Assembly: GCF_001677475.2 (NCBI RefSeq) | Contig: NZ_CP015229.1 | Reading direction: 5' to 3' (one strand) | Length of the DNA stretch: 64,000 nucleotides | DNA from: Escherichia coli | GTDB taxonomy: Bacteria > Pseudomonadota > Gammaproteobacteria > Enterobacterales > Enterobacteriaceae | In this document: one piece after another, positions 319 to 60,052 of the stretch | Layout: each line of letters begins with the position of its first letter | Numbering within the stretch: the stretch's first letter is position 1 | Made by a program: the position numbers and the translations under genes | Notes under the pieces: generated by a model | What the model was told of the DNA's origin: nothing | Seen by the model: the letters and a program-made list of their open reading frames with translations, nothing else | Databases searched by the model: none

Positions 319-1278
319 ATGAATATTTCCGATATTCGCGCAGGACTGCGCACGCTTGTAGACAATGGAGAAACCACGCTGACACGCATCGCCAGTGAAT
401 CAGGCGTGGCCCTGAGCACAGTCAGTGGTTTTGTGAATGATAAATATAACGGCAACATGGAATCAGTCGGGCGCACACTGGAACGCTGGCTGGAAAACTA
501 TCACCGCGCAGAAGAACTGCCGGAACCCCCGCGTTTTGTGGAAACTGCAACAGCCCGTCAAATCTGGACAAGTATGCGTTTTGCTAATCTGACCGGAACC
601 ATTGCTGTTATCTGTGGCAATCCAGGAGTGGGTAAAAGCGAAGCAGCCCGTGAATTTTGTCGCACTAATAATAATGTCTGGATGATCACCATCGCGCCAT
701 CCCGTGCCAGTACGCTGGAATGTCTGACTGAACTTGCCGAAGAGTTGGGAATGAATAATGCACCCTGTCGCAAAGGGCCGCTTTCCCGTAATCTGCGTCG
801 CCGCCTGAAAGGGACGCAGGGACTGGTCATTGTTGACGAAGCTGATCACCTTGACACCGAAGCGCTGGAAGAGCTCCGTCTGTTACAGGAGTCCGCCTGT
901 ATTGGTCTGGTTCTGATGGGGAATCACCGTGTTTATTCAAATATGACCGCTAATGGCGACAGAACAATTGAGTTTGCCCGTCTGTTTTCCCGTATTGCAA
1001 AGCGCACAGCAATTAATAAAACCAAAGAAGACGATGTAAACGCAATTGCGGATGCCTGGCAGATTACCGGGAAAAATGAACGGGAATTATTACAGCAGAT
1101 TGCACAAACGCCTGGTGCGCTCCGCATTATGAATCAAACGCTGCGCCTTGCTGTTATGAATGCCTTCGGTAAAGGCGAACGTGTTAATGAGGATTATCTG
1201 CGTGAGGCTTACAAAGAGTTAGACCAGGACGTTGATGTTTCGATGCTGCTGGGTGTGCAAGGGGATGCTGAATCATGA
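319..1278 (+). CDS. B: Mu B-like ATP-dependent target-DNA activator
   Basis: 319 aa; GAGG RBS; Walker A GNPGVGKS and VIVDEADHL; N-terminus [14 protein letters not shown] as in Mu B. Confidence 0.9.
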
Positions 1279-1502
1279 TGTCACGGAATATCAAAATGGC
1301 AACGGAAGTAAAGAGCTGGTTACAGGAGCGCGGCAGCCACGTCAACGAATCCTGGCTGGGCGTGGCCCGCCCGGTGCTTGAAATCACCTGCCCACCACCG
1401 GAGCTTGTCAGGAATGCTGTCAGGATTATGGAGCGTAAATCAGGGGTTGCCCGTTCAGTCTGGACGGCCCGCCTTAATGGTTGCCAGATTATCTGGCGTT
1501 AA
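1275..1502 (+). CDS. small early protein at the kil position (Kil-like by position only)
   Basis: 75 aa ORF; ATG overlaps B stop (ATGATG); position equals Mu kil. Confidence 0.45.
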
Positions 1503-1534
1503 TAACGGCTTATTTATTTGTGAGGAATAACAAA

Positions 1535-1804
1535 ATGGCAAAAGTAATCTTTGAATTTAACCGCATGGAAGATGTTGAGTTTCAGAAAAAAGGAGGTTTC
1601 TTTGTAGGAATGAGTGTGCAACTGGAAGAACAGTCTCCTAAGGAGCAAACCGGACCGCATGACGTGATGGCAGTCATTATCAAGAGCATGGCTCCTGAAA
1701 TTATTGAAAAAGCAACCCAGGAGTTGTTGAAGTCAGCCAGAGAACTTGGGCTGGAAGCCGAAGGCGAGTTATTCCGGTATAACCCGGATGCAGCTAAATA
1801 TTAA
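1535..1804 (+). CDS. hypothetical early-region protein
   Basis: 89 aa from ATG 1535 with GAGGAA RBS. Confidence 0.55.
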   Translation: MAKVIFEFNRMEDVEFQKKGGFFVGMSVQLEEQSPKEQTGPHDVMAVIIKSMAPEIIEKATQELLKSARELGLEAEGELFRYNPDAAKY

Positions 1805-1824
1805 TTCGCAAAGGAACGCTGACA

Positions 1825-2244
1825 ATGAAAGCCAAAATCAGAAACGAAATTCAGGCATTAATTCGGATTAAAGAGCGTAATAGCAATGGTGGAGACTTGC
1901 GCGAATTTATTTGCGCGCGCGAAGTTGAGGGATATGGCGAAAAGACTTACCTGATTGCATTCGACCATTACAGCATTTGTGCGCGTTATTGCGGGGAGGC
2001 GGTATTCCGCGCCATTACGTTTGGCAATGCCTTCAATGTGGATTTATGGGAATACGTCATGGACCGCGAATACATCAGCGCGTCAGACCCGGACGCACGG
2101 GAGCAGTGGAAGAACATCTGGCGCGATTACCGGCAAATGGCGAAAGGCTGGACGCAGGGGACGTATTCTTCCCTTGCCCTGAAAGCGGTTCAGCTATCTG
2201 TGCGGCATATGCTGTCGGCACGATTCGAACTCCCGGTGCACTGA
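1825..2244 (+). CDS. hypothetical early-region protein
   Basis: 139 aa; AAAGGAA RBS before ATG 1825. Confidence 0.55.
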   Translation: MKAKIRNEIQALIRIKERNSNGGDLREFICAREVEGYGEKTYLIAFDHYSICARYCGEAVFRAITFGNAFNVDLWEYVMDREYISASDPDAREQWKNIWRDYRQMAKGWTQGTYSSLALKAVQLSVRHMLSARFELPVH

Positions 2245-2260
2245 TAAGGAGGGCATCATC

Positions 2261-2548
2261 ATGATAATCCCTCGCAAAAGATGGTCACGTGAAGACCGGG
2301 AATTTATCGAAGCCAGTGTCGGGAAAATGACAGTTGAAGAAATGGCGAAAAAACTGAACGTTGCCACAAGCGCCCTGCGGGCACATGCCAGAAGGTACGG
2401 AATATCGTTGTGTGTATACAAAATCAGTGAGCACGACAAATATTTGTGTCGAGAACTTTATAAAGAAGGGGTGGCTATTCATGTCATTGCCCAAAAGATG
2501 GAATTAAGCAATCGGGCTGTATCCAGCGTTGTATACAGTGAATATTAA
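2261..2548 (+). CDS. hypothetical early-region protein, possible HTH
   Basis: 95 aa; strong AAGGAGG RBS. Confidence 0.55.
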   Translation: MIIPRKRWSREDREFIEASVGKMTVEEMAKKLNVATSALRAHARRYGISLCVYKISEHDKYLCRELYKEGVAIHVIAQKMELSNRAVSSVVYSEY

Positions 2549-2568
2549 TTAACAGGAGCTTTATTTAT

Positions 2569-3093
2569 ATGGCTAAACCAGCAAAACGAATCAGGAATGC
2601 CGCAGCAGCTTATGTTCCTCAATCCCGCGATGCCGTGGTGTGTGATATTCGCTGGATTGGTGACCTGCAACGCGAAGCGGTACGACTTGAAACGGAAATG
2701 AATGACGCTATTGCTGAAATTACGGAGAAATACGCCTCACGGATTGCGCCGCTTAAAACCCGTATTGAAACCCTTTCAAAAGGCGTTCAGGGGTGGTGTG
2801 AAGCGAACCGTGACGAACTGACGAACGGCGGCAAGGTGAAGACGGCCAACCTGGTAACCGGTGATGTGTCATGGCGTCAGCGCCCACCATCAGTAAGTAT
2901 TCGCGGTGTGGATGCGGTGATGGAAACGCTGGAGCGTCTTGGCCTGCAACGCTTTATTCGCACGAAACAGGAAATCAACAAGGAAGCGATTTTACTGGAA
3001 CCGAAAGCGGTCGCAGGTGTTGCCGGAATTACAGTTAAATCAGGCATTGAAGATTTTTCTATTATTCCGTTTGAACAGGAAGCCGGTATTTAA
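2569..3093 (+). CDS. gam: Gam host-nuclease inhibitor (DNA end-binding)
   Basis: 174 aa, same length as Mu Gam; MAKPAKRI...IIPFEQEAGI closely matches Mu Gam as recalled. Confidence 0.9.
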   Translation: MAKPAKRIRNAAAAYVPQSRDAVVCDIRWIGDLQREAVRLETEMNDAIAEITEKYASRIAPLKTRIETLSKGVQGWCEANRDELTNGGKVKTANLVTGDVSWRQRPPSVSIRGVDAVMETLERLGLQRFIRTKQEINKEAILLEPKAVAGVAGITVKSGIEDFSIIPFEQEAGI

Positions 3094-3191
3094 TACCACC
3101 ACGAATATTTAATTAGTTCACTTTCTTTTAATTATGGCGCGATGCGTCAGGGGATTGCTCGCGCCTGAATCTGATATACGGGATATAAAAA

Positions 3192-3734
3192 ATGATTAAT
3201 ACAAAAGTTCTGAGCGGCGTCAGCACATTATTACAGGTTTACGGGCGTCTGACCTGCGGCGTACTGGCTGAAAAAATGAAGATGCCACCTTCCTCAATGG
3301 TGTATTTCCTGCGTGATGCGGTTGATGCCGGAGTTCTCACTGAATGCAACGGATTTTATGACGTTCCGCGCCCTCGTCCGACGCCGCCAGTAATACGAAA
3401 CGCAACAACGGAGCACCCCGATGTTGATGATGCTCAATGGTGCGCGTTCCGCCGCTCTTTGCCCTGGCTGGAAGGCAATGCCATTCCGGCACTGGCAAAA
3501 GAATTTGCGACAGGCGTACTGACCTGCGAGTCGGTTTACATCGTTGCTGAAGTGGATGACGATATGTGCAAACAGGGAATGCCCCGTTTTGTGATGGCTT
3601 ATATCGATATCCGGCTGGGTCGTTTTATTTGTGGCTCCAGTGGCTGGAATATCACCGACCACATCCTGCGCTATCTCATTCTTGATTATTCACCAGCTCC
3701 GGCAGCAACACAGGAAGTCAGTGAACATGATTAA
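3192..3734 (+). CDS. hypothetical early-region protein
   Basis: 180 aa ORF; weak RBS. Confidence 0.5.
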   Translation: MINTKVLSGVSTLLQVYGRLTCGVLAEKMKMPPSSMVYFLRDAVDAGVLTECNGFYDVPRPRPTPPVIRNATTEHPDVDDAQWCAFRRSLPWLEGNAIPALAKEFATGVLTCESVYIVAEVDDDMCKQGMPRFVMAYIDIRLGRFICGSSGWNITDHILRYLILDYSPAPAATQEVSEHD

Positions 3735-3909
3735 GTCAACTGGCTTTGTCCTGCTGGTTGGCACCTGCGGGAATGATGCCTGCGATGCCATTCCGGTAAC
3801 GGAAAAAATCTGGCCCACAGAGCAGGCATGTATGCAGGTGATGGAGCGCATACAAAAACGTTATCCCAGTGAAATCTTTTATTGCGAAGAGGTATTACGA
3901 AATGAATAA
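3727..3909 (+). CDS. small hypothetical protein
   Basis: 60 aa from ATG 3727, overlapping previous stop. Confidence 0.4.
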   Translation: MIKSTGFVLLVGTCGNDACDAIPVTEKIWPTEQACMQVMERIQKRYPSEIFYCEEVLRNE

Positions 3910-4228
3910 ACCAGAGAATAAAGAAATGAAATTCACACCAGTTGATATTGATGGCGTCATGGCTAATTTAAAGATGCTGGAACGTATGCACGATATCGTT
4001 AAATATGGTATTGAGCATGACCTCACCGCCAGAGAAGTCCGGAGCATTATTAACCGTGAAATGAACCAGGTGGAAGCTGCCGTGGCGCTACAAAATGAAG
4101 CAGCCCGCGAGGAATACATTCGTCGCAGGCTGGGACTATCAAATAAAGATATTCTTACGGATGCTCAGATGGCTGAGGCTTTTGATATTCATCAGAATCT
4201 TGGTCTAACAAACGGATGGTATCAGTGA
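3902..4228 (+). CDS. hypothetical early-region protein
   Basis: 108 aa from ATG 3902 with GAGG RBS. Confidence 0.5.
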   Translation: MNKPENKEMKFTPVDIDGVMANLKMLERMHDIVKYGIEHDLTAREVRSIINREMNQVEAAVALQNEAAREEYIRRRLGLSNKDILTDAQMAEAFDIHQNLGLTNGWYQ

Positions 4229-55500: not shown

Positions 55501-55844
55501 TGGAAGCCTTCCTCGGTGCGGAAGGGCGGTCTGAGTTTGTATGCGGTGATTTTGCAGCGGTGATTGAAGCTGCCGGAGAAGGAGATGTCATCTTTTGCGA
55601 TCCGCCGTATGAACCGCTTCCAAATACAGAGGGATTCACGAACTATTCCGGTCATGACTTTAAGTTTGAAGAGCAAAAACGCCTGGTGTCTCTGTTGACG
55701 GATGCTCATCGTCGAGGTGCAAAGGTTCTCATTACTAACAGTGGCGCGCCAAACATCAGAGAGCTTTATCATGACAGTGGCTTCAGAGTGGAACCTCTTT
55801 TTGCCAGACGTTCTGTGTCTTGTAAGGGGACACTCGAGGTGTAG
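52587..55844 (+). CDS. bifunctional DNA methyltransferase: C5-cytosine domain (interrupted by intein) fused to Dam-like N6-adenine domain
   Basis: 1085 aa; C5 motifs GGTP/CQAFS, ENV, QRRRR, RLQGFP, GNS; Dam motifs [10 protein letters not shown] and DPPY. Confidence 0.8.
52818..53840 (+). other. intein with LAGLIDADG homing-endonuclease domain inside the methyltransferase
   Basis: 341 aa from CFTAGHMV to GAVVHN followed by +1 Cys; TTNDH block; [11 protein letters not shown] and [11 protein letters not shown]. Confidence 0.7.
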
Positions 55845-55863
55845 CTCATGACGTTTTGGGTAT

Positions 55864-55880
55864 ATTGCTCTAATAAATTT
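55864..55880. promoter_or_regulatory. C1 operator 17-mer, perfect consensus, upstream of tRNA-tci-ban operon
   Basis: ATTGCTCTAATAAATTT. Confidence 0.55.
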
Positions 55881-56053
55881 ATTAGTGTAATATCGCCTCA
55901 ATGAATCGTGATTTATAGAGCGATTTAGCTGTTAGCCGCGACAGGCGCGGCGGTAAGCATGGCTGGGCCTAGTCCTCCCAGACAAACCACCGAGTTGCCA
56001 GGTTGACCATGCGCCTAAGTGGCAACGCCGAAGTGCGTTACGAGCTTCCAGTT

Positions 56054-56080
56054 TGCCCATCTTCGGGTGGGCGTTTTTTT
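56054..56080 (+). terminator. terminator-like hairpin in operon leader
   Basis: GCCCATC-TTCG-GGTGGGC then T7. Confidence 0.4.
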
Positions 56081-56545
56081 CAGGGTTTTCGTCATAGTTA
56101 GCGACTTTGCGGCGGTTTAGAAACTGACCATTAAAGTAAATGCAAACGATGATCTGATGATGGTAGCGGCCTAAGAAGCCAGATGCCACGGGGTATGAGT
56201 CGTCCCCCGTCAAAAAATCGACCGCAGAGTGTCCCCGTCTGTGTATTAGGGAACGGGGAGGCACAACAGGTAAGGGCGCTGGTGTGATTAACCAGATGAA
56301 CGAGAAGGGGCCATCTGTTGGTCAGCGTCCTTTCCTGTTGCGTTTTCTTTTCAGCGTAACAGCGGTGCTTAACAGCACTTTGGGTACAGTTCCACGAATT
56401 TACGGGTATATCCCGTCATGCTGAAGGCGCTAATCACGCTGGAAGCCAGGGTTGTGCATCCCCTGTTACCGAATTGCAGCCAGGGCGCGGTGCGCCGAAA
56501 AGCATACGGAGGTGGAAGCCCTCGCCGGAGACGTACCCGGCAAGT

Positions 56546-56621
56546 GATGGTGTAGCTCAGCGGTTAGAGCGGTTGACTGTTAATCAACGGGTCGATGGTT
56601 CAAATCCATCCACCATCGCCA
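56546..56621 (+). tRNA. tRNA-Asn (anticodon GTT)
   Basis: Cloverleaf folded by hand; anticodon loop CTGTTAA; T-loop GGTTCAAATCC; encoded CCA. Confidence 0.85.
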
Positions 56622-56623
56622 AT

Positions 56624-56699
56624 GCCGGTTTAGCTCAGTTGGTAGAGCGCCTGCCTTGTAAGCAGGATGTCAGCGGTTCGAGTCCGTTAATCGGCACCA
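56624..56699 (+). tRNA. tRNA-Thr (anticodon TGT)
   Basis: Cloverleaf folded by hand; anticodon loop CTTGTAA; T-loop GGTTCGAGTCC; encoded CCA. Confidence 0.85.
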
Positions 56700-57626
56700 G
56701 CACAACAGGTAAGGGTATTTTGCGACGTCGGAGATCGCCGAGCTTGGCAGAGGGTTCGAATCCCTACGAAGTACCCTTACCGTTGTGATGAATGCGCAGG
56801 CTGATGCGCGAAAGACATTGCAGCTATTGCGGAAAAGAGCTGTTCGGCGGGGCAATTAAACGCCCGTGAGAGTCTGAAATAACCGCAAGCCGGAGATCAG
56901 CACCGGTCATCACAACACAACAGGTAAGGGCATTCTCCCTTATGGGGCTTGGCTTAAATGCATCGAGTGCTCTTACCGTTGTGATGAAGTGCAGCTCTTT
57001 GAAGCAACCAGAAGATAAGCATCTGGCTTCACAACATAAACCGCAGGAACGACCAATAAACGGTAGTCCGTATGGAGAACACCCCGTTGAGGAAGAGGCC
57101 TGGCCGGAACCGTAACCGGCACTACAACGTTGAGAACACTGGCGTAACGGGGTCATATCCCAATCTACGAATAAATGTTGCGTTGCAGCGTGACAACCAG
57201 TGTTCTCAACATTGTGGTGAATGCACAGGCTGATGTGCCGCAACTACAGTAGTGCGCGCTTTGCGGGGCTTGCTACAACCCTGTGTCGGAGTTCAGCACC
57301 GACCATCACAGTTTGATTCTCTGGCATGAGCATAACGCTGAAATAAGTCCAGTCTGGTGCGGCCCGATCACCCGCCGTTAGCTCCACGAAACGGAGCACG
57401 TAACAGGTAAGAGCATTCTCCTGTAACGGGTTCATATCCCAATCTACAGGTCCACCAGGAATGCTCTTTCCGTTGCGGTGAATGCGGCTAAGCGCACGCG
57501 GGGAAATGGTTATATCTGTCCATTATTTCTCCTTATTTCCCCGTCCACGGTGGATAACCAGCCAAAGGACACCGGGAGGCACCCGGCACCGCAACCTTAT
57601 TTCCCAACCAGTAATGAGGTTAATAA

Positions 57627-58052
57627 ATGCTCGGTATTCTCAAAAAGAAATTCCGCAAAGCGGCTGGCGGAGTCAAGAAGATGGAAAACCGTGATGCGGT
57701 GGAAGCGACTGTCTGGGGCGCATATTCCATTGCATACTCTGACGGCACCTGCGATGCGAAAGAAATTGCAGTATTGGAAAAAACCATTGCAGCACTTCCT
57801 GCCTTTGCGCCGTTCTCCGGTGAAATTGCCCAGATGAGCGCCAATATTCGCGCTCAATATGAAGCCTCGCCGCGCCGAGCGAATGCCCAGGCTTTACGTG
57901 AACTGGCTGACGTGTCTGGAACTAATGATGCGGTAGATGTTCTGTGCCTATGCATTGATATTGCTGACCAGGATGGCATTGGGGCAGAAGAGCAGGAGCA
58001 ATTGAAGAAAATTGCCCAGGCTCTTCAATTGCCACTGGAACAGTATATCTGA
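57627..58052 (+). CDS. TerB-like domain protein (tciA position)
   Basis: 141 aa; GAGG RBS; helical, acidic. Confidence 0.65.
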   Translation: MLGILKKKFRKAAGGVKKMENRDAVEATVWGAYSIAYSDGTCDAKEIAVLEKTIAALPAFAPFSGEIAQMSANIRAQYEASPRRANAQALRELADVSGTNDAVDVLCLCIDIADQDGIGAEEQEQLKKIAQALQLPLEQYI

Positions 58053-58216
58053 TGGTTATAAAAGCACGTCTAATTCTGGCTTTGGTTTTTCTCGTGCTAT
58101 CTGTGCTGGTGGATTTCACCAGCACAATCCTGTCGGTTTTATCCGACGGGGCGTTGGTAGCAGTAGCTGTAACATTGGTATGGCCGATATTTAAACCAGC
58201 CTCGAAGGATCAGTGA
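58052..58216 (+). CDS. small hydrophobic membrane peptide
   Basis: 54 aa; ATG overlaps previous stop; two hydrophobic helices. Confidence 0.45.
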   Translation: MVIKARLILALVFLVLSVLVDFTSTILSVLSDGALVAVAVTLVWPIFKPASKDQ

Positions 58217-58323
58217 TGAGCTTCTGGGATTTTGCAGATAAGTATCCAATTGTTCTCATTATCATTGTTGCCATAGTTGTAGGCGGTATTGTTAGCGCCA
58301 TTGAAGCACTTAGGAAACAGTAA
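58216..58323 (+). CDS. small hydrophobic membrane peptide
   Basis: 35 aa; ATG overlaps previous stop (TGATG); one TM. Confidence 0.4.
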   Translation: MSFWDFADKYPIVLIIIVAIVVGGIVSAIEALRKQ

Positions 58324-58326
58324 TCC

Positions 58327-58402
58327 GGCCCTTTAGCTCAGTGGTTAGAGCTGGCGACTCATAATCGCACGGTCACCGGTTCAAGTCCGGTAGGGGCCAC
58401 CA
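58327..58402 (+). tRNA. tRNA with CAT anticodon (Met or lysidine-dependent Ile)
   Basis: Cloverleaf folded by hand; anticodon loop CTCATAA; T-loop GGTTCAAGTCC; encoded CCA. Confidence 0.8.
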
Positions 58403-58687
58403 TATTTGGTTGTAACACGGCGTCTGGCACATGCGTCGTTAGCGGTCTGGTAACGTTAAAGGGGTTACCTTTTCCCCTAGCTCAGGCAACAAACCAGGTA
58501 GCCGAAATGTGCAAGTCACCGTTGGAGGGATAGCGGATACAGGGACTCACCATCCTGGCGATTCGGTGTGACAGCCGGGAAGAGTCCGGCGCATTAATCC
58601 TGATTTTCTGGTGATGACTCATATCGTTAGGAGTGATTTGAGTATGCCGATTATATCTGACATTCAGCACGCCTGGGTGGAGTGCTA

Positions 58688-60052
58688 ATGTCTGCATCCC
58701 CTCTTGAATCCATGCCAAATTCCCTTAGTGCAGAACAAGCTGTACTTGGTGGCTTAATGCTTGATAACTGCCGCTGGGATGAAGTTGCAGATCGTATAGT
58801 TGCTGATGATTTTTATACCAGTGCTCATCGTGAAATTTTCAGTGAGATGGAGAGGTTATTAAGTCATGGCAAACCGATTGATTTGATAACACTTGCTGAA
58901 GCACTTGAACAGAACGGTAAATTAGAACGCGCCGGTGGTTTTGCGTACCTTGCGGAGATGTCAAAGAACACGCCCAGCGCGGCAAATATTTGTGCTTATG
59001 CGGATATCGTTCGTGAACGCGCGGTTGTTCGTGAAATGATTTCCGTCGCAAATGAAATAGCTGAAGCTGGATATGCGCAGGATGGCAGGGGCAGCAATGA
59101 ATTGCTGGATATGGCCGAGCGCCGCGTTTTTGAAATAGCTGAAAAACGACAAAAGAGCGGTAGTGGTCCAAAAGATATCGCCAGCATTCTCGATGCAACG
59201 GTATCTCGCATAGAAGAGTTGTTTCAGCGACCGCATGATGGTGTAACGGGGCTTGATACCGGATTTACCGATCTCAATAAGAAGACGGCAGGACTTCAGG
59301 CGTCCGATCTCATTATTGTCGCCGCCCGCCCATCGATGGGGAAGACTACGTTTGCGATGAATCTCGTCGAAAATGCCGCAGTCCGTAACGATAAGCCCGT
59401 ATTGGTTTTTAGCCTTGAGATGCCGAGCCACCAGCTGATGATGCGCTCACTGGCTTCTCTTGCACGCGTTGATCAGACTCGTATTCGAACAGGGCAACTT
59501 AACGACGAGGATTGGGCGCGGGTTTCTGGCGCAATGGGGATTCTGTTGGACAAGCAGAATATTTTTATTGATGACTCAAGCGCCCTGACACCTACAGAGC
59601 TTCGTTCCCGCGCTCGTCGTGTTTATAAAGAAAATGGTGGTTTGAGCATGATTATGATCGACTACCTGCAACTTATGCGCGTCCCCGAGCTGCAAGATAA
59701 CCGAACGCTGGAAATTGCCGAGATTTCTCGCTCACTGAAGGCTTTGGCGAAGGAATTACAAGTACCGGTGGTGGCATTGTCACAACTTAATCGATCGCTT
59801 GAACAGCGTGCGGACAAACGACCGGTAAATTCAGATTTACGTGAATCAGGAGCAATTGAGCAGGACGCAGACCTGATCATGTTTCTGTATCGTGACGAAG
59901 TTTATCACCCGGATAGCGAAATGAAGGGCATTGCCGAGGTAATTATCGGTAAGCAACGAAATGGCCCAATTGGCACGGTGAGATTGGCTTTTAACGGCCA
60001 ATACTCACGGTTTGATAACTATGCCGGTGCTGACTGGCAAGAGGATTATTAA
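58688..60052 (+). CDS. ban: DnaB-like replicative helicase Ban
   Basis: 455 aa from ATG 58688; Walker A GKT, DnaB-family C-terminal motifs. Confidence 0.85.
   Translation: MSASPLESMPNSLSAEQAVLGGLMLDNCRWDEVADRIVADDFYTSAHREIFSEMERLLSHGKPIDLITLAEALEQNGKLERAGGFAYLAEMSKNTPSAANICAYADIVRERAVVREMISVANEIAEAGYAQDGRGSNELLDMAERRVFEIAEKRQKSGSGPKDIASILDATVSRIEELFQRPHDGVTGLDTGFTDLNKKTAGLQASDLIIVAARPSMGKTTFAMNLVENAAVRNDKPVLVFSLEMPSHQLMMRSLASLARVDQTRIRTGQLNDEDWARVSGAMGILLDKQNIFIDDSSALTPTELRSRARRVYKENGGLSMIMIDYLQLMRVPELQDNRTLEIAEISRSLKALAKELQVPVVALSQLNRSLEQRADKRPVNSDLRESGAIEQDADLIMFLYRDEVYHPDSEMKGIAEVIIGKQRNGPIGTVRLAFNGQYSRFDNYAGADWQEDY

Follow-up and report, generated by a model that had tools for sequence, protein, structure and literature searches.

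What do the roughly 1.3 kb surrounding the tRNA-Asn and tRNA-Thr genes of phage P1 encode? P1 and lambda rank with the most thoroughly studied of all genomes, yet in P1 about 900 bp of the region are annotated as two doubtful proteins, Plp and Upl, and homologues in lambda-type late leaders, where we examined them, carry no annotation. We approached the question through a 64,000-nucleotide (nt) stretch of Escherichia coli DNA (assembly GCF_001677475.2, contig NZ_CP015229.1), referred to as the window, which judged by its sequence is a P1-family phage-plasmid. A sequence-only reading of the window had pointed to repeated structured elements near the phage tRNA cluster, and repeat counts, shuffled sequences and folding z-scores confirm them. 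The region is most likely a co-transcribed, plus-strand array of non-coding RNA modules in which two kinds alternate. Between the promoter region Pban and the gene tciA lie five hairpins that we call type-1 clamps (A to E), four of which then adjoin a tRNA-like, or type-2, unit (X1 to X4).

The type-1 clamp is a helix of about 20 base pairs (bp), ACAACAGGUAAGRGCAUUG / CAGUGCUCUUWCCGUUGU, which has a bulged A and often a U-U mismatch and encloses a variable insert. Its 5' arm, ACAACAGGTAAGGG, occurs exactly at 56263, 56702 and 56917, always on the plus strand; the chance expectation is 0.30, and none of 100 shuffled sequences reached three copies. A fourth copy, at 57400, is the variant GTAACAGGTAAGAG, and a fifth, more diverged one, CTACAACGTTGAGAACACTGG, begins at 57122. 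The sequence-only reading had listed at least four copies, at 56262, 56704, 56928 and 57400. The repeats are real, although the second and third positions are off by 2 and 11 nt and the diverged fifth copy was not counted. The long stems that it proposed, formed with a downstream complementary arm around variable inserts, are also present, as each copy has its 3' arm 26-54 nt downstream. Compared with shuffled sequences, clamps A to E fold with z-scores of -4.7, -3.6, -6.2, -8.3 and -6.4, and each is 5-10 kcal/mol more stable on the plus than on the minus strand.

The pairing is also supported by its variation among phages. In a set of 26 diverse clamps assembled by hand, pairing holds in 90% of cells and both sides have changed in 15 of 20 pairs, values that none of 500 shuffles reached but that are upper bounds because the set was picked by eye for complementarity. 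G-U pairs are frequent in the helix (one position alone has 15 U-G) and are compatible with the plus strand only. When the 5' arm alone was used for scanning, a complementary 3' arm was found within 260 nt at 67 of about 125 motif sites across loci (120 from viral contigs). The cargo between the arms, 39-207 nt long, is essentially unrelated from phage to phage. Conservation and covariance in related genomes had been proposed as a check on the elements, and in those genomes the modules are conserved and the helices covary.

All five clamps lie on the plus strand. Clamp A (56262-56342; z -4.74) folds with -37.9 kcal/mol, against -32.2 kcal/mol on the minus strand. Clamp B (56701-56787; z -3.63) starts 2 nt past the CCA of tRNA-Thr and carries a canonical T-arm, AGGGUUCGAAUCCCU, at 56751-56765, where the motif AGGGTTCGAATCCCT had been noticed earlier; homologous cargo is found in Enterobacter phage BUCT554. 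The cargo of clamp C (56916-56983; z -6.16) also stands directly past the terminator tR' in the lambdoid prophages L040, L093 and L112 (L numbers denote loci used for comparison). Clamp D (57122-57217; z -8.32) has 23-nt arms that are 91% complementary and have diverged with compensatory changes. It contains the motif AC-GGGG-UCAUAU-CCC-AAUC at 57149-57161, a near copy of GGGTTCATATCCC, which itself is found at 57428-57440 in the cargo of clamp E (57399-57477; z -6.41; CCUGUA-AC-GGG-UUCAUAU-CCC-AAUC-UACAGG). Both inserts had been described as T-arm-like; that of B is a true T-arm, but the loop in D and E is not a canonical T-loop, because it has U rather than A at position 58. In the form AC-GGG-YUCAUAW-CCC-AAUC this motif, with the look of a T-arm, is also present in L003/L004, L011, L077 and L087, and its flanking helix covaries (CCUGUA/UACAGG, CCGGACG/CAUCCGG, GCGUG/CAUGC).

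Comparison with relatives shows that stem and tail of the elements are separate, alternating units. A tail shared by several elements had been noticed before, and this tail, GUUGUGRUGAAU, is the start of the type-2 unit. The sequence GTTGTGRTGAATGCRCAGGCTGATG, with a chance expectation of 0.00, is exact at 56782, has one mismatch at 57211 and is partial at 56978 and 57472. The tRNA-like character first attributed to the long stems thus belongs to the units that begin with the tail, whereas the stems are clamps around hypervariable cargo. A type-2 unit consists of a closing helix of 7-9 bp (GUUGUGGUG...CACCACAAC), a linker of 2-3 nt (AAU), hairpin 1, a variable centre, and hairpin 2 placed flush against the closing 3' strand; whole units span 58-218 nt. 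We call these units tRNA-like because their elements follow the order of a tRNA, namely closing strand, 2-3 nt, hairpin, variable domain and stacked hairpin. In the predicted fold, an acceptor-like helix is coaxial with a hairpin in the T position, with a gap of 0 nt, and the D and T loops are in contact.

In 20 type-2 variants, whose selection demanded the closing helix, 94.6% of cells are paired and nine pairs are compensatory over four helices, including a kissing interaction between the loops of hairpins 1 and 2. This kiss, GGCUGA/UCAGC, becomes ACUGA/UCAGU in phage P7 and GUCGA/UCGAC in L145, with a G-U intermediate in D6. A sister subfamily has, instead of kissing loops, a D-arm-like hairpin GCUC-AAUGGC-GAGC with a GG dinucleotide and a canonical T-arm NNNNG-UUCGAYU-CNNNN, the loop of which is fixed while its stem covaries. 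The D-like hairpin 1, GCUCAAUGGCGAGC, goes together with a GUUCGAYUC T-arm in seven of the eight units listed (the eighth is probably a mis-called closure), while units of the GGCUGA type carry a complementary loop 2, mostly UCAGC. The elbow therefore appears to be built in two interchangeable ways. For the unit in L037 the minimum free energy (MFE) fold is cloverleaf-shaped, having D, variable and T arms and a long central arm, and in other phages CCA directly follows roughly one third of type-2 units.

The four units of the window are likewise on the plus strand. In X1 (56782-56916) the closing helix GUUGUGAUG/CAUCACAAC is followed by AAU, hairpin 1 (GCGCA-GGCUGA-UGCGC), a centre of 72 nt and hairpin 2 (GCCGG-AGAUCAGCA-CCGGU), which abuts the 3' strand, and the loops can kiss through GCUGAU/AUCAGC. 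X2 (56978-57035) is a short form of 58 nt with closing helix GUUGUGA/UCACAAC and an abutting hairpin 2, CCAGA-AGAUAAGCA-UCUGG; homologues occur in Sashavirus, L087 and phage Ro157c2. X3 (57211-57312) has a hairpin 1, GCACA-GGCUGA-UGUGC, that is compensatory with respect to X1, and a hairpin 2, GUCGG-AGUUCAGCA-CCGAC. X4 (57472-57595) stands directly upstream of tciA (ATG at 57627), and its MFE structure contains the closing helix and both hairpins.

Searches with tRNA and Rfam models, another check suggested at the outset, gave a mixed result. ARAGORN and the Rfam tRNA model (RF00005) find only the three annotated tRNAs, the modules being unmatched even at E < 5, and the modules have no anticodon arm. 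X4 alone obtains a sub-threshold match, to the small RNA (sRNA) STnc100 (RF02076; positions 57474-57593, 39.2 bits, E = 3.6e-6, model positions 31-147 only), and is a relative of that RNA. With 48.8 bits across the whole model, a homologous unit in Klebsiella phage K751 exceeds the gathering score. The core architecture of STnc100, that is, a closing helix, a 5' hairpin past GGUGAAU and an abutting 3' hairpin, is present in the MFE folds of X1, X3 and X4.

The modules appear to be transcribed together. The P1 RefSeq annotation, mapped onto the window (window position = locus position + 53349, with Oban at locus 2499-2544), places the Pban promoters and the divalent C1 operator Oban at 55848-55893 on the plus strand, at the start of the operon. 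A scan of 55900-58700 found no consensus promoters on either strand and no terminators beyond one at 56054-56080; since this interval has no internal promoter or further terminator, we place the array within one long operator-controlled transcription unit. Mapping and scan both agree with the sequence-only reading, which had located the elements in the leader and spacers of an operator-controlled tRNA-tci-ban operon. The ban operon is driven from a distant repressor-controlled promoter.

Related modules are widespread. X1 (137 nt) is 97-99% identical in lambdoid and Shiga toxin (Stx) phages, where it lies in an unannotated gap of about 780 nt just downstream of cI, and at the same identity over 137 nt in phage IME207, upstream of two tRNAs. 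With a more sensitive search, pieces of a 931-nt region were found in 117 phage records from Escherichia, Klebsiella, Salmonella, Cronobacter and Enterobacter, among them P22-like, Sasha-like and Ackermannviridae phages, and the matches nearly always fall under 'no feature'. The carriers are both virulent and temperate. In the lambda-like prophages L012, L037, L093, L112 and L125, a pair of clamp and type-2 unit stands directly past PR'-6S-tR'. The L012 sequence (1700-2400) presumably corresponds to the lambda late leader between tR' and S. Sites homologous to L012 in complete E. coli genomes, including DE3 lysogens (partial matches, 30% of the query), have no annotated feature.

The sequence-only reading had tied the family to the tRNA cluster, yet it is specific neither to tRNA clusters nor to P1. 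A tRNA gene lies within 300 nt of 13 of 59 distinct clamps (22%), always on the same strand, as compared with 5% for positions drawn at random from these loci. Modules and tRNAs are genuinely associated, yet proximity to a tRNA does not define the family. In relatives the tRNA genes fall at module junctions on the same strand. P7 and D6 have a tRNA-Ser between a type-2 unit and the next clamp, and in Ro157c2 a tRNA-Tyr lies between the Asn and Thr genes. Whole modules have also been gained or lost among P1-family genomes, with junctions inside the repeated arms. P1 lacks 56800-56965 (X1 and the 5' part of C), P7 lacks 56720-56901, and SJ46 fuses D to E. The third clamp of P7 has as its cargo the interior of a lambda-type type-2 unit, and cargo therefore moves between both scaffold types.

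On balance we lean towards the reading that the array is a set of natural tRNA-scaffolded small RNAs that would be cut from the tRNA-ban transcript by tRNA-processing enzymes. The type-2 units would serve as the scaffolds, with the variable domain in the position of the anticodon arm. Cleavage by RNase P would fall where the preceding clamp meets the 5' edge of the closing helix, and the 3' side would be trimmed by RNase E and exonucleases, as for the neighbouring tRNAs. The clamps, which with 20 bp, one bulged A and a frequent U-U mismatch have a stem long enough for RNase III, may be substrates of this enzyme, the cleavage being putative, or may shield the newly formed ends. Discrete small RNAs that resist nucleases would result. 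After derepression of Pban their variable domains could act in trans, either as base-pairing sRNAs similar to PasD or as protein decoys that mimic T-arms. Three options had been offered from the sequence alone, namely tRNA-like processing substrates, small RNAs and degenerate tRNAs; the first two together come closest to this reading, and decaying tRNA genes do not fit it.

Several observations weigh against such scaffolded small RNAs. Processing in P1 by RNase P, E or III is something that we purely infer. X4 remains below the STnc100 gathering score of 47, and X1 to X3 have no match to STnc100, tRNA or any other Rfam family at E < 5. Judged by folding energy alone, neither X2 (z -0.7) nor X3 (z -0.8) is significant. 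The covariation statistics are inflated, as the alignments were built by eye or by demanding complementarity. A 3' CCA is missing from all four units of the window, and the closing helix and hairpin 2 add up to 14 bp, not 12. The nearly invariant sequence of the clamp arms goes beyond structural need and hints at a partner that recognises the sequence itself, or at some role of the DNA. Finally, the outer five clamp bp (ACAAC/GUUGU) and the next unit's closing helix are in competition, so the folds of a clamp and of its neighbour cannot both be complete; this competition may be a switch.

It is unlikely that the modules act only in cis, with no release of a trans-acting small RNA, by insulating folding, by blocking exonucleases or 5'-end-dependent RNase E after tRNA excision, or by tuning tciABC and ban. 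Their placement would suit such a role: clamps begin 2 nt past a tRNA CCA or right past terminator U-tracts, X4 is 31 nt upstream of the tciA start, the modules occupy long operon leaders in P1 and lambda-type loci, and the array in the window has no internal promoters or terminators. However, cis action leaves the hypervariable cargo, the doubly maintained tRNA-like elbow and the recurrent T-arm cargo unexplained. In addition, the related RNAs PasD and STnc100 are treated as stand-alone sRNAs (in a preprint and in Rfam), PasD gives Hfq-dependent bands (PMC8550237), and the STnc100 model ends in a terminator-like 3' hairpin.

The T-arm cargo is also central to a somewhat less probable proposal, in which the cargos are anti-host or anti-defence decoys, shaped like T-arms or tRNAs, that titrate or misdirect host factors recognising tRNAs, such as anticodon nucleases, tRNA-targeting defences and modification enzymes. 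Outside the tRNAs called by ARAGORN we counted 34 T-arm hairpins, many of them inside or beside modules, with invariant G-UUCGAxx-C loops and covarying stems. These hairpins, the 22% co-location with tRNAs against 5% at random, and the presence of modules in virulent as well as temperate phages speak for decoys, which would also account for the rapid turnover of cargo that is hypervariable between conserved arms. On the other hand, the targets are hypothetical, many cargos have no tRNA-like feature, and the D/E loop is non-canonical. As a hypothesis about what the cargo does, this proposal is compatible with scaffolded small RNAs rather than exclusive of them.

An improbable explanation places the function in DNA. 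The arms would be recombination linkers, or terminal repeats like those of miniature inverted-repeat transposable elements, that shuffle cassettes including tRNA genes, and RNA structure would be a by-product. The whole-module insertions and deletions that end in repeated arms in P1, P7 and SJ46, the near invariance of the arm sequence across unrelated phage families, and the identical cargo in a P7 type-1 clamp and a lambda-like type-2 helix are all in keeping with this idea. Yet stability is strand-asymmetric, G-U pairs would be A-C mismatches on the other strand, and compensatory changes in internal hairpins and in a loop-loop kiss would be meaningless in DNA. Neither a transposase nor target-site duplications were seen, although duplications were not examined systematically. 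Moreover, recombination between repeats is to be expected in any case and is compatible with a function as RNA.

Very improbable is the idea that the elements are decaying remnants of tRNA genes that now have no function. The T-arm sequences in B and in relatives, the cloverleaf-like topology of type-2 units and the real tRNA genes (Ser, Tyr, Gly) at equivalent positions in relatives would fit such remnants. The modules, however, have no anticodon arm and match no tRNA model even at E < 5, and their 97-99% identity across distant phages and covarying helices are signatures of selection rather than decay; the compensatory changes point to purifying selection. An evolutionary origin of the modules from tRNAs is possible.

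The annotated proteins fare worst. The plp and upl frames of P1 (56670-57435, minus strand) correspond in the window to open reading frames (ORFs) of 139 and 63 codons (56824-57243 and 57244-57435) that are annotated in P1, RCS47 and JL22 and are the sole sizeable ORFs across the array; both are Cys-rich and antisense to it, and they are probably not genes. P1 Plp has a TTG start, is Cys-rich and ends antisense within tRNA-Thr. In Ro157c2 the plp frame carries an in-frame stop and is split, P7 and SJ46 lack N- or C-terminal parts of Plp, SJ46 also lacks upl, and the C-terminal 33 residues of Plp are replaced in the window owing to insertion of an extra cassette. Neither gene is annotated in P7 or D6, and no minus-strand consensus promoter was found across 55900-58700. 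The stop, the split, the truncations and the replaced C-terminus lead us to regard plp and upl as artefacts antisense to a structured RNA, in agreement with the earlier impression that the overlapping, Cys-rich ORFs of the region look spurious. That the region encodes a putative lipoprotein, Plp, and Upl on the minus strand, as the length of these ORFs and their annotation in three genomes would have it, is hardly credible.

Directly upstream of clamp A, and abutting it, we found a different module that resembles the message part of transfer-messenger RNA (tmRNA). This module (56086-56260, plus strand) consists of a 5' hairpin, the A-rich stretch AAAGUAAAU, a tag frame, an H-type pseudoknot and a terminal hairpin. 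The frame at 56142-56171, GCA AAC GAT GAT CTG ATG ATG GTA GCG GCC, is followed by the stop TAA at 56172-56174 and would specify ANDDLMMVAA, so that the module presents a resume codon, a tag frame with a C-terminal AA degron and then a pseudoknot, as a tmRNA message does. A scan with the leader motif found it in at least 120 viral contigs. About 115 matches have exactly 10 codons of the form AN(D/E)....A(A/V)A followed by a stop, with final Ala codons that vary synonymously; the few exceptions are chance matches within long ORFs. Homologues occur in lambdoid phages, IME207-like siphoviruses and Ackermannviridae. The lambdoid consensus offers no start codon in frame, and eight codons upstream it has an in-frame TAG. 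The pseudoknot covaries four ways (CCGA/UCGG, CCAG/CUGG, CCAA/UUGG and, in P1, GUCG/CGAC), and in the terminal hairpin a covarying stem carries a constant loop, GGUGUGAUUAAUAAU. In some copies the module starts directly at a promoter that lies about 70 nt before the frame.

The likeness to tmRNA thus lies in the 10-codon frame starting with GCA, the A-rich stretch before it, the pseudoknot after it and a tag that resembles the E. coli sequence ANDENYALAA. In contrast to tmRNA, no tRNA-like domain, G3:U70 pair or CCA can be assigned to the module at 56086-56260. ARAGORN was negative, the flanks contain no acceptor/T pair with G3:U70, and the Rfam tmRNA_permuted model gives 24.1-26.3 bits against a gathering score of 47. 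A weak tmRNA match in L037 (20 bits) was considered as the tRNA domain of the tag and rejected, as it is the T-arm end of a type-2 unit.

The remaining parts of the array are structured as well. In a first plus-strand spacer (56343-56545), the hairpin GCCGGAGACGUACCCGGC forms the end next to tRNA-Asn, and part of the sequence has a homologue in L071 that lies upstream of a type-1 module. A second plus-strand spacer (57036-57121) has at 57103-57120 the terminal hairpin GCCGG-AACCGUAA-CCGGC, a recurrent module end that precedes type-1 arms in several phages. The third (57313-57398, plus strand), with the hairpin GCUCCACGAAACGGAGC, has counterparts in Klebsiella and Cronobacter prophages.

The mapped annotation gives the gene order dmt, Pban/Oban, dicF-like region, tRNA-Asn, tRNA-Thr, plp/upl, tciA-tciB-tciC, tRNA-Ile and ban. 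The gene dmt ends at 55844, the part given over to plp and upl measures about 930 nt, tciA, tciB and tciC follow from 57627 (the tciA ATG), and ban begins at 58682. ARAGORN identifies tRNA-Asn(GUU) at 56546-56621 and tRNA-Thr(UGU) at 56624-56699, both on the plus strand (Rfam tRNA scores of 74.5 and 72.9 bits), and names tRNA-Ile(CAU), at 58327-58402, tRNA-Met. The 'dicF-like region' of the P1 annotation (55988-56089, plus strand) ends in the terminator at 56054-56080, a strong intrinsic one, and expression of the tRNA, tci and ban genes must require read-through or antitermination past it. The succession of Pban, a 'dicF-like' RNA of about 180 nt, a terminator and modules (from 55893-56080) mirrors that of PR', 6S RNA, tR' and modules in lambda-like phages.

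Over 55850-57650 the window shares 99.4% identity with Escherichia phage JL22 and 99.4-99.5% with RCS47 and P1 isolates. The window is a mosaic. In the tRNA-module region (55850-57650) its nearest relative is JL22 (99.4-99.8%), whereas the trnI-ban spacer (58403-58681) is 99.6% identical to RCS47 and only 92.9% identical to JL22 and P1; these differing closest relatives imply a recombination junction between the two. The spacer holds a further shared non-coding module at 58403-58590, ..GGCACAUGCGUCG.UAGCGGUCYGG...GGUAGCCGGAAUGUGCAAG..CACCAUCGUGGCG..GACACCUCGGAAGAGACGAGGA, which is also present at L004 2690-2900 and in upstream parts of L053, L061, L071 and L096, has counterparts of about 80% identity in Stx, cdtI and mEp460 phages, and directly follows a promoter in several loci. 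We suspected an antiterminator RNA like put of HK022 but could not confirm this identity; HK022 is absent among the BLAST matches listed.

Loci in other phages show what else such arrays may contain. In Klebsiella phage K751 (L007, Ackermannviridae) more than 3 kb without annotated genes (960-4030) are packed with covarying clamps and units. The tract includes the full STnc100 match, at 3497-3711, a tag module and, at about 1640-1697, a tRNA-like gene with acceptor, D and T arms and a 3-nt 'anticodon' loop that ARAGORN does not call. In L125 (2189-2240; also in L041 and L150) no nucleotide of the type I hammerhead ribozyme core is missing from a clamp cargo, GCGCGC-CUGACGAG-stem II-CGAAAC-GCAUUAGC-GUC|GCGCG, by a manual reading, since the Rfam Hammerhead_3 score is only 22 bits. 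P22-like loci (L096 1448-1500 and L006 2270-2318) have weak DicF-like matches after a clamp/type-2 pair (22-24 bits; gathering score 48; UUGGCGGUGGCAGUU...ACCACCGCCC and a U-tract), which suggests that these arrays also include terminator sRNAs of the DicF type.

More broadly, and only tentatively, enterobacterial phages of many families could carry a modular RNA 'display' system, in which clamps and natural tRNA scaffolds present exchangeable cargo RNAs. The cargos might be T-arm mimics, a hammerhead-like core and sRNA seeds, with the tag template, which has no tRNA domain, as an addition. Release would come about through host tRNA maturation, and the whole would form an accessory arsenal against translation, RNA surveillance or defence. 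If the modules are recognised as one shared family of RNAs, the plp and upl annotations would be corrected, and the embedding of phage tRNA genes in long 'non-coding' tracts would be explained. The tRNA scaffold would give a rationale for the origin, stability and spread of prophage sRNAs such as PasD and STnc100, sRNAs with a link to virulence regulation in enteropathogenic (EPEC) and enterohaemorrhagic E. coli. Natural, evolution-tested scaffolds would become available for expressing cargo RNAs, and the role of hypervariable cargo, including a phage-borne template for a tmRNA-like degradation tag, would become a testable question.

Our literature searches did not find the clamp family or the tag module described, nor a tRNA-like reading of the units, and we compared the modules with a range of known elements. 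GOLLD, ROOL, HEARO and other large phage RNAs gave no Rfam match at E < 5. A hammerhead in the window was rejected because CUGAUGCGCGAAAG lacks stem II and has no Rfam match; the complete core is found only as cargo in other loci. By inspection, the modules do not match the R''/R' consensus of integron attC sites (RYYYAAC/GTTRRRY). The resemblance of GGUAAGRG to J11/12-J12/13 of RNase P RNA is too short and involves a loop there and a helix here, and we treat it as chance. The reported sequences of P22 sncRNAs do not contain the module motifs. The Y RNA YrlA (RF02553) has a single match in the window (25.6 bits; gathering score 69), which is an artefact over two real tRNAs and does not involve the modules. 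YrlA is similarly modular, with a long protein-binding stem and a tRNA-like domain with a T-arm, and occurs in phages and bacteria, but its stem differs from the modules in sequence and connectivity. P1 is not known to have a Ro/Rsr gene.

Phages are no strangers to small RNAs that are matured from longer transcripts, and in this respect the modules would resemble two known cases. The C4 antisense RNA of P1 and P7 (Rfam RF01695) is matured by RNase P and mimics a minihelix of tRNA acceptor and T arms, and the tRNA cluster of T4 encodes two stable non-tRNA RNAs, species 1 and 2, that are co-transcribed with the tRNAs. Neither is similar to the modules in sequence or by model, the only match to the C4 model being in a lambdoid locus, elsewhere, and C4 has a defined antisense target whereas the modules have variable cargo. 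The engineered tRNA scaffolds of Ponchon and Dardel, in which cargo replaces the anticodon arm, reportedly stabilise cargo RNAs in E. coli. They share with type-2 units the retention of acceptor, D and T elements, so that in the engineered system tRNA-processing enzymes can excise and stabilise the chimera. Those scaffolds are artificial and use a real tRNA body, however, while the body of a type-2 unit is a diverged mimic, where in most copies a Watson-Crick kiss stands in for the D/T-loop contact.

The closest natural counterparts of the type-2 units are STnc100 and PasD. STnc100 is a prophage sRNA of unknown function located beside stx2 (PMC12370729), and a 2026 preprint makes the case for a common ancestry with PasD (bioRxiv 10.64898/2026.05.13.724894). 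Both have in common with type-2 units the closing helix (ca)UGGUGAAU...GGCACCA(ug), a hairpin past GAAU and a 3' hairpin, CCGGGAGGCACCCGG, that abuts the closing strand. All are of phage or prophage origin and are found in late or accessory leaders. In contrast to STnc100 and PasD, the P1 units lie within a tRNA operon and lack a separate promoter and terminator, and in the literature that we found neither a tRNA-like reading nor an obligatory upstream clamp is described for these sRNAs. In EPEC, PasD1 and PasD2 appear on Northern blots as discrete, Hfq-stabilised bands and have targets by RNA interaction by ligation and sequencing (RIL-seq; PMC8550237). These bands therefore indicate that relatives of the type-2 units do accumulate as small RNAs.

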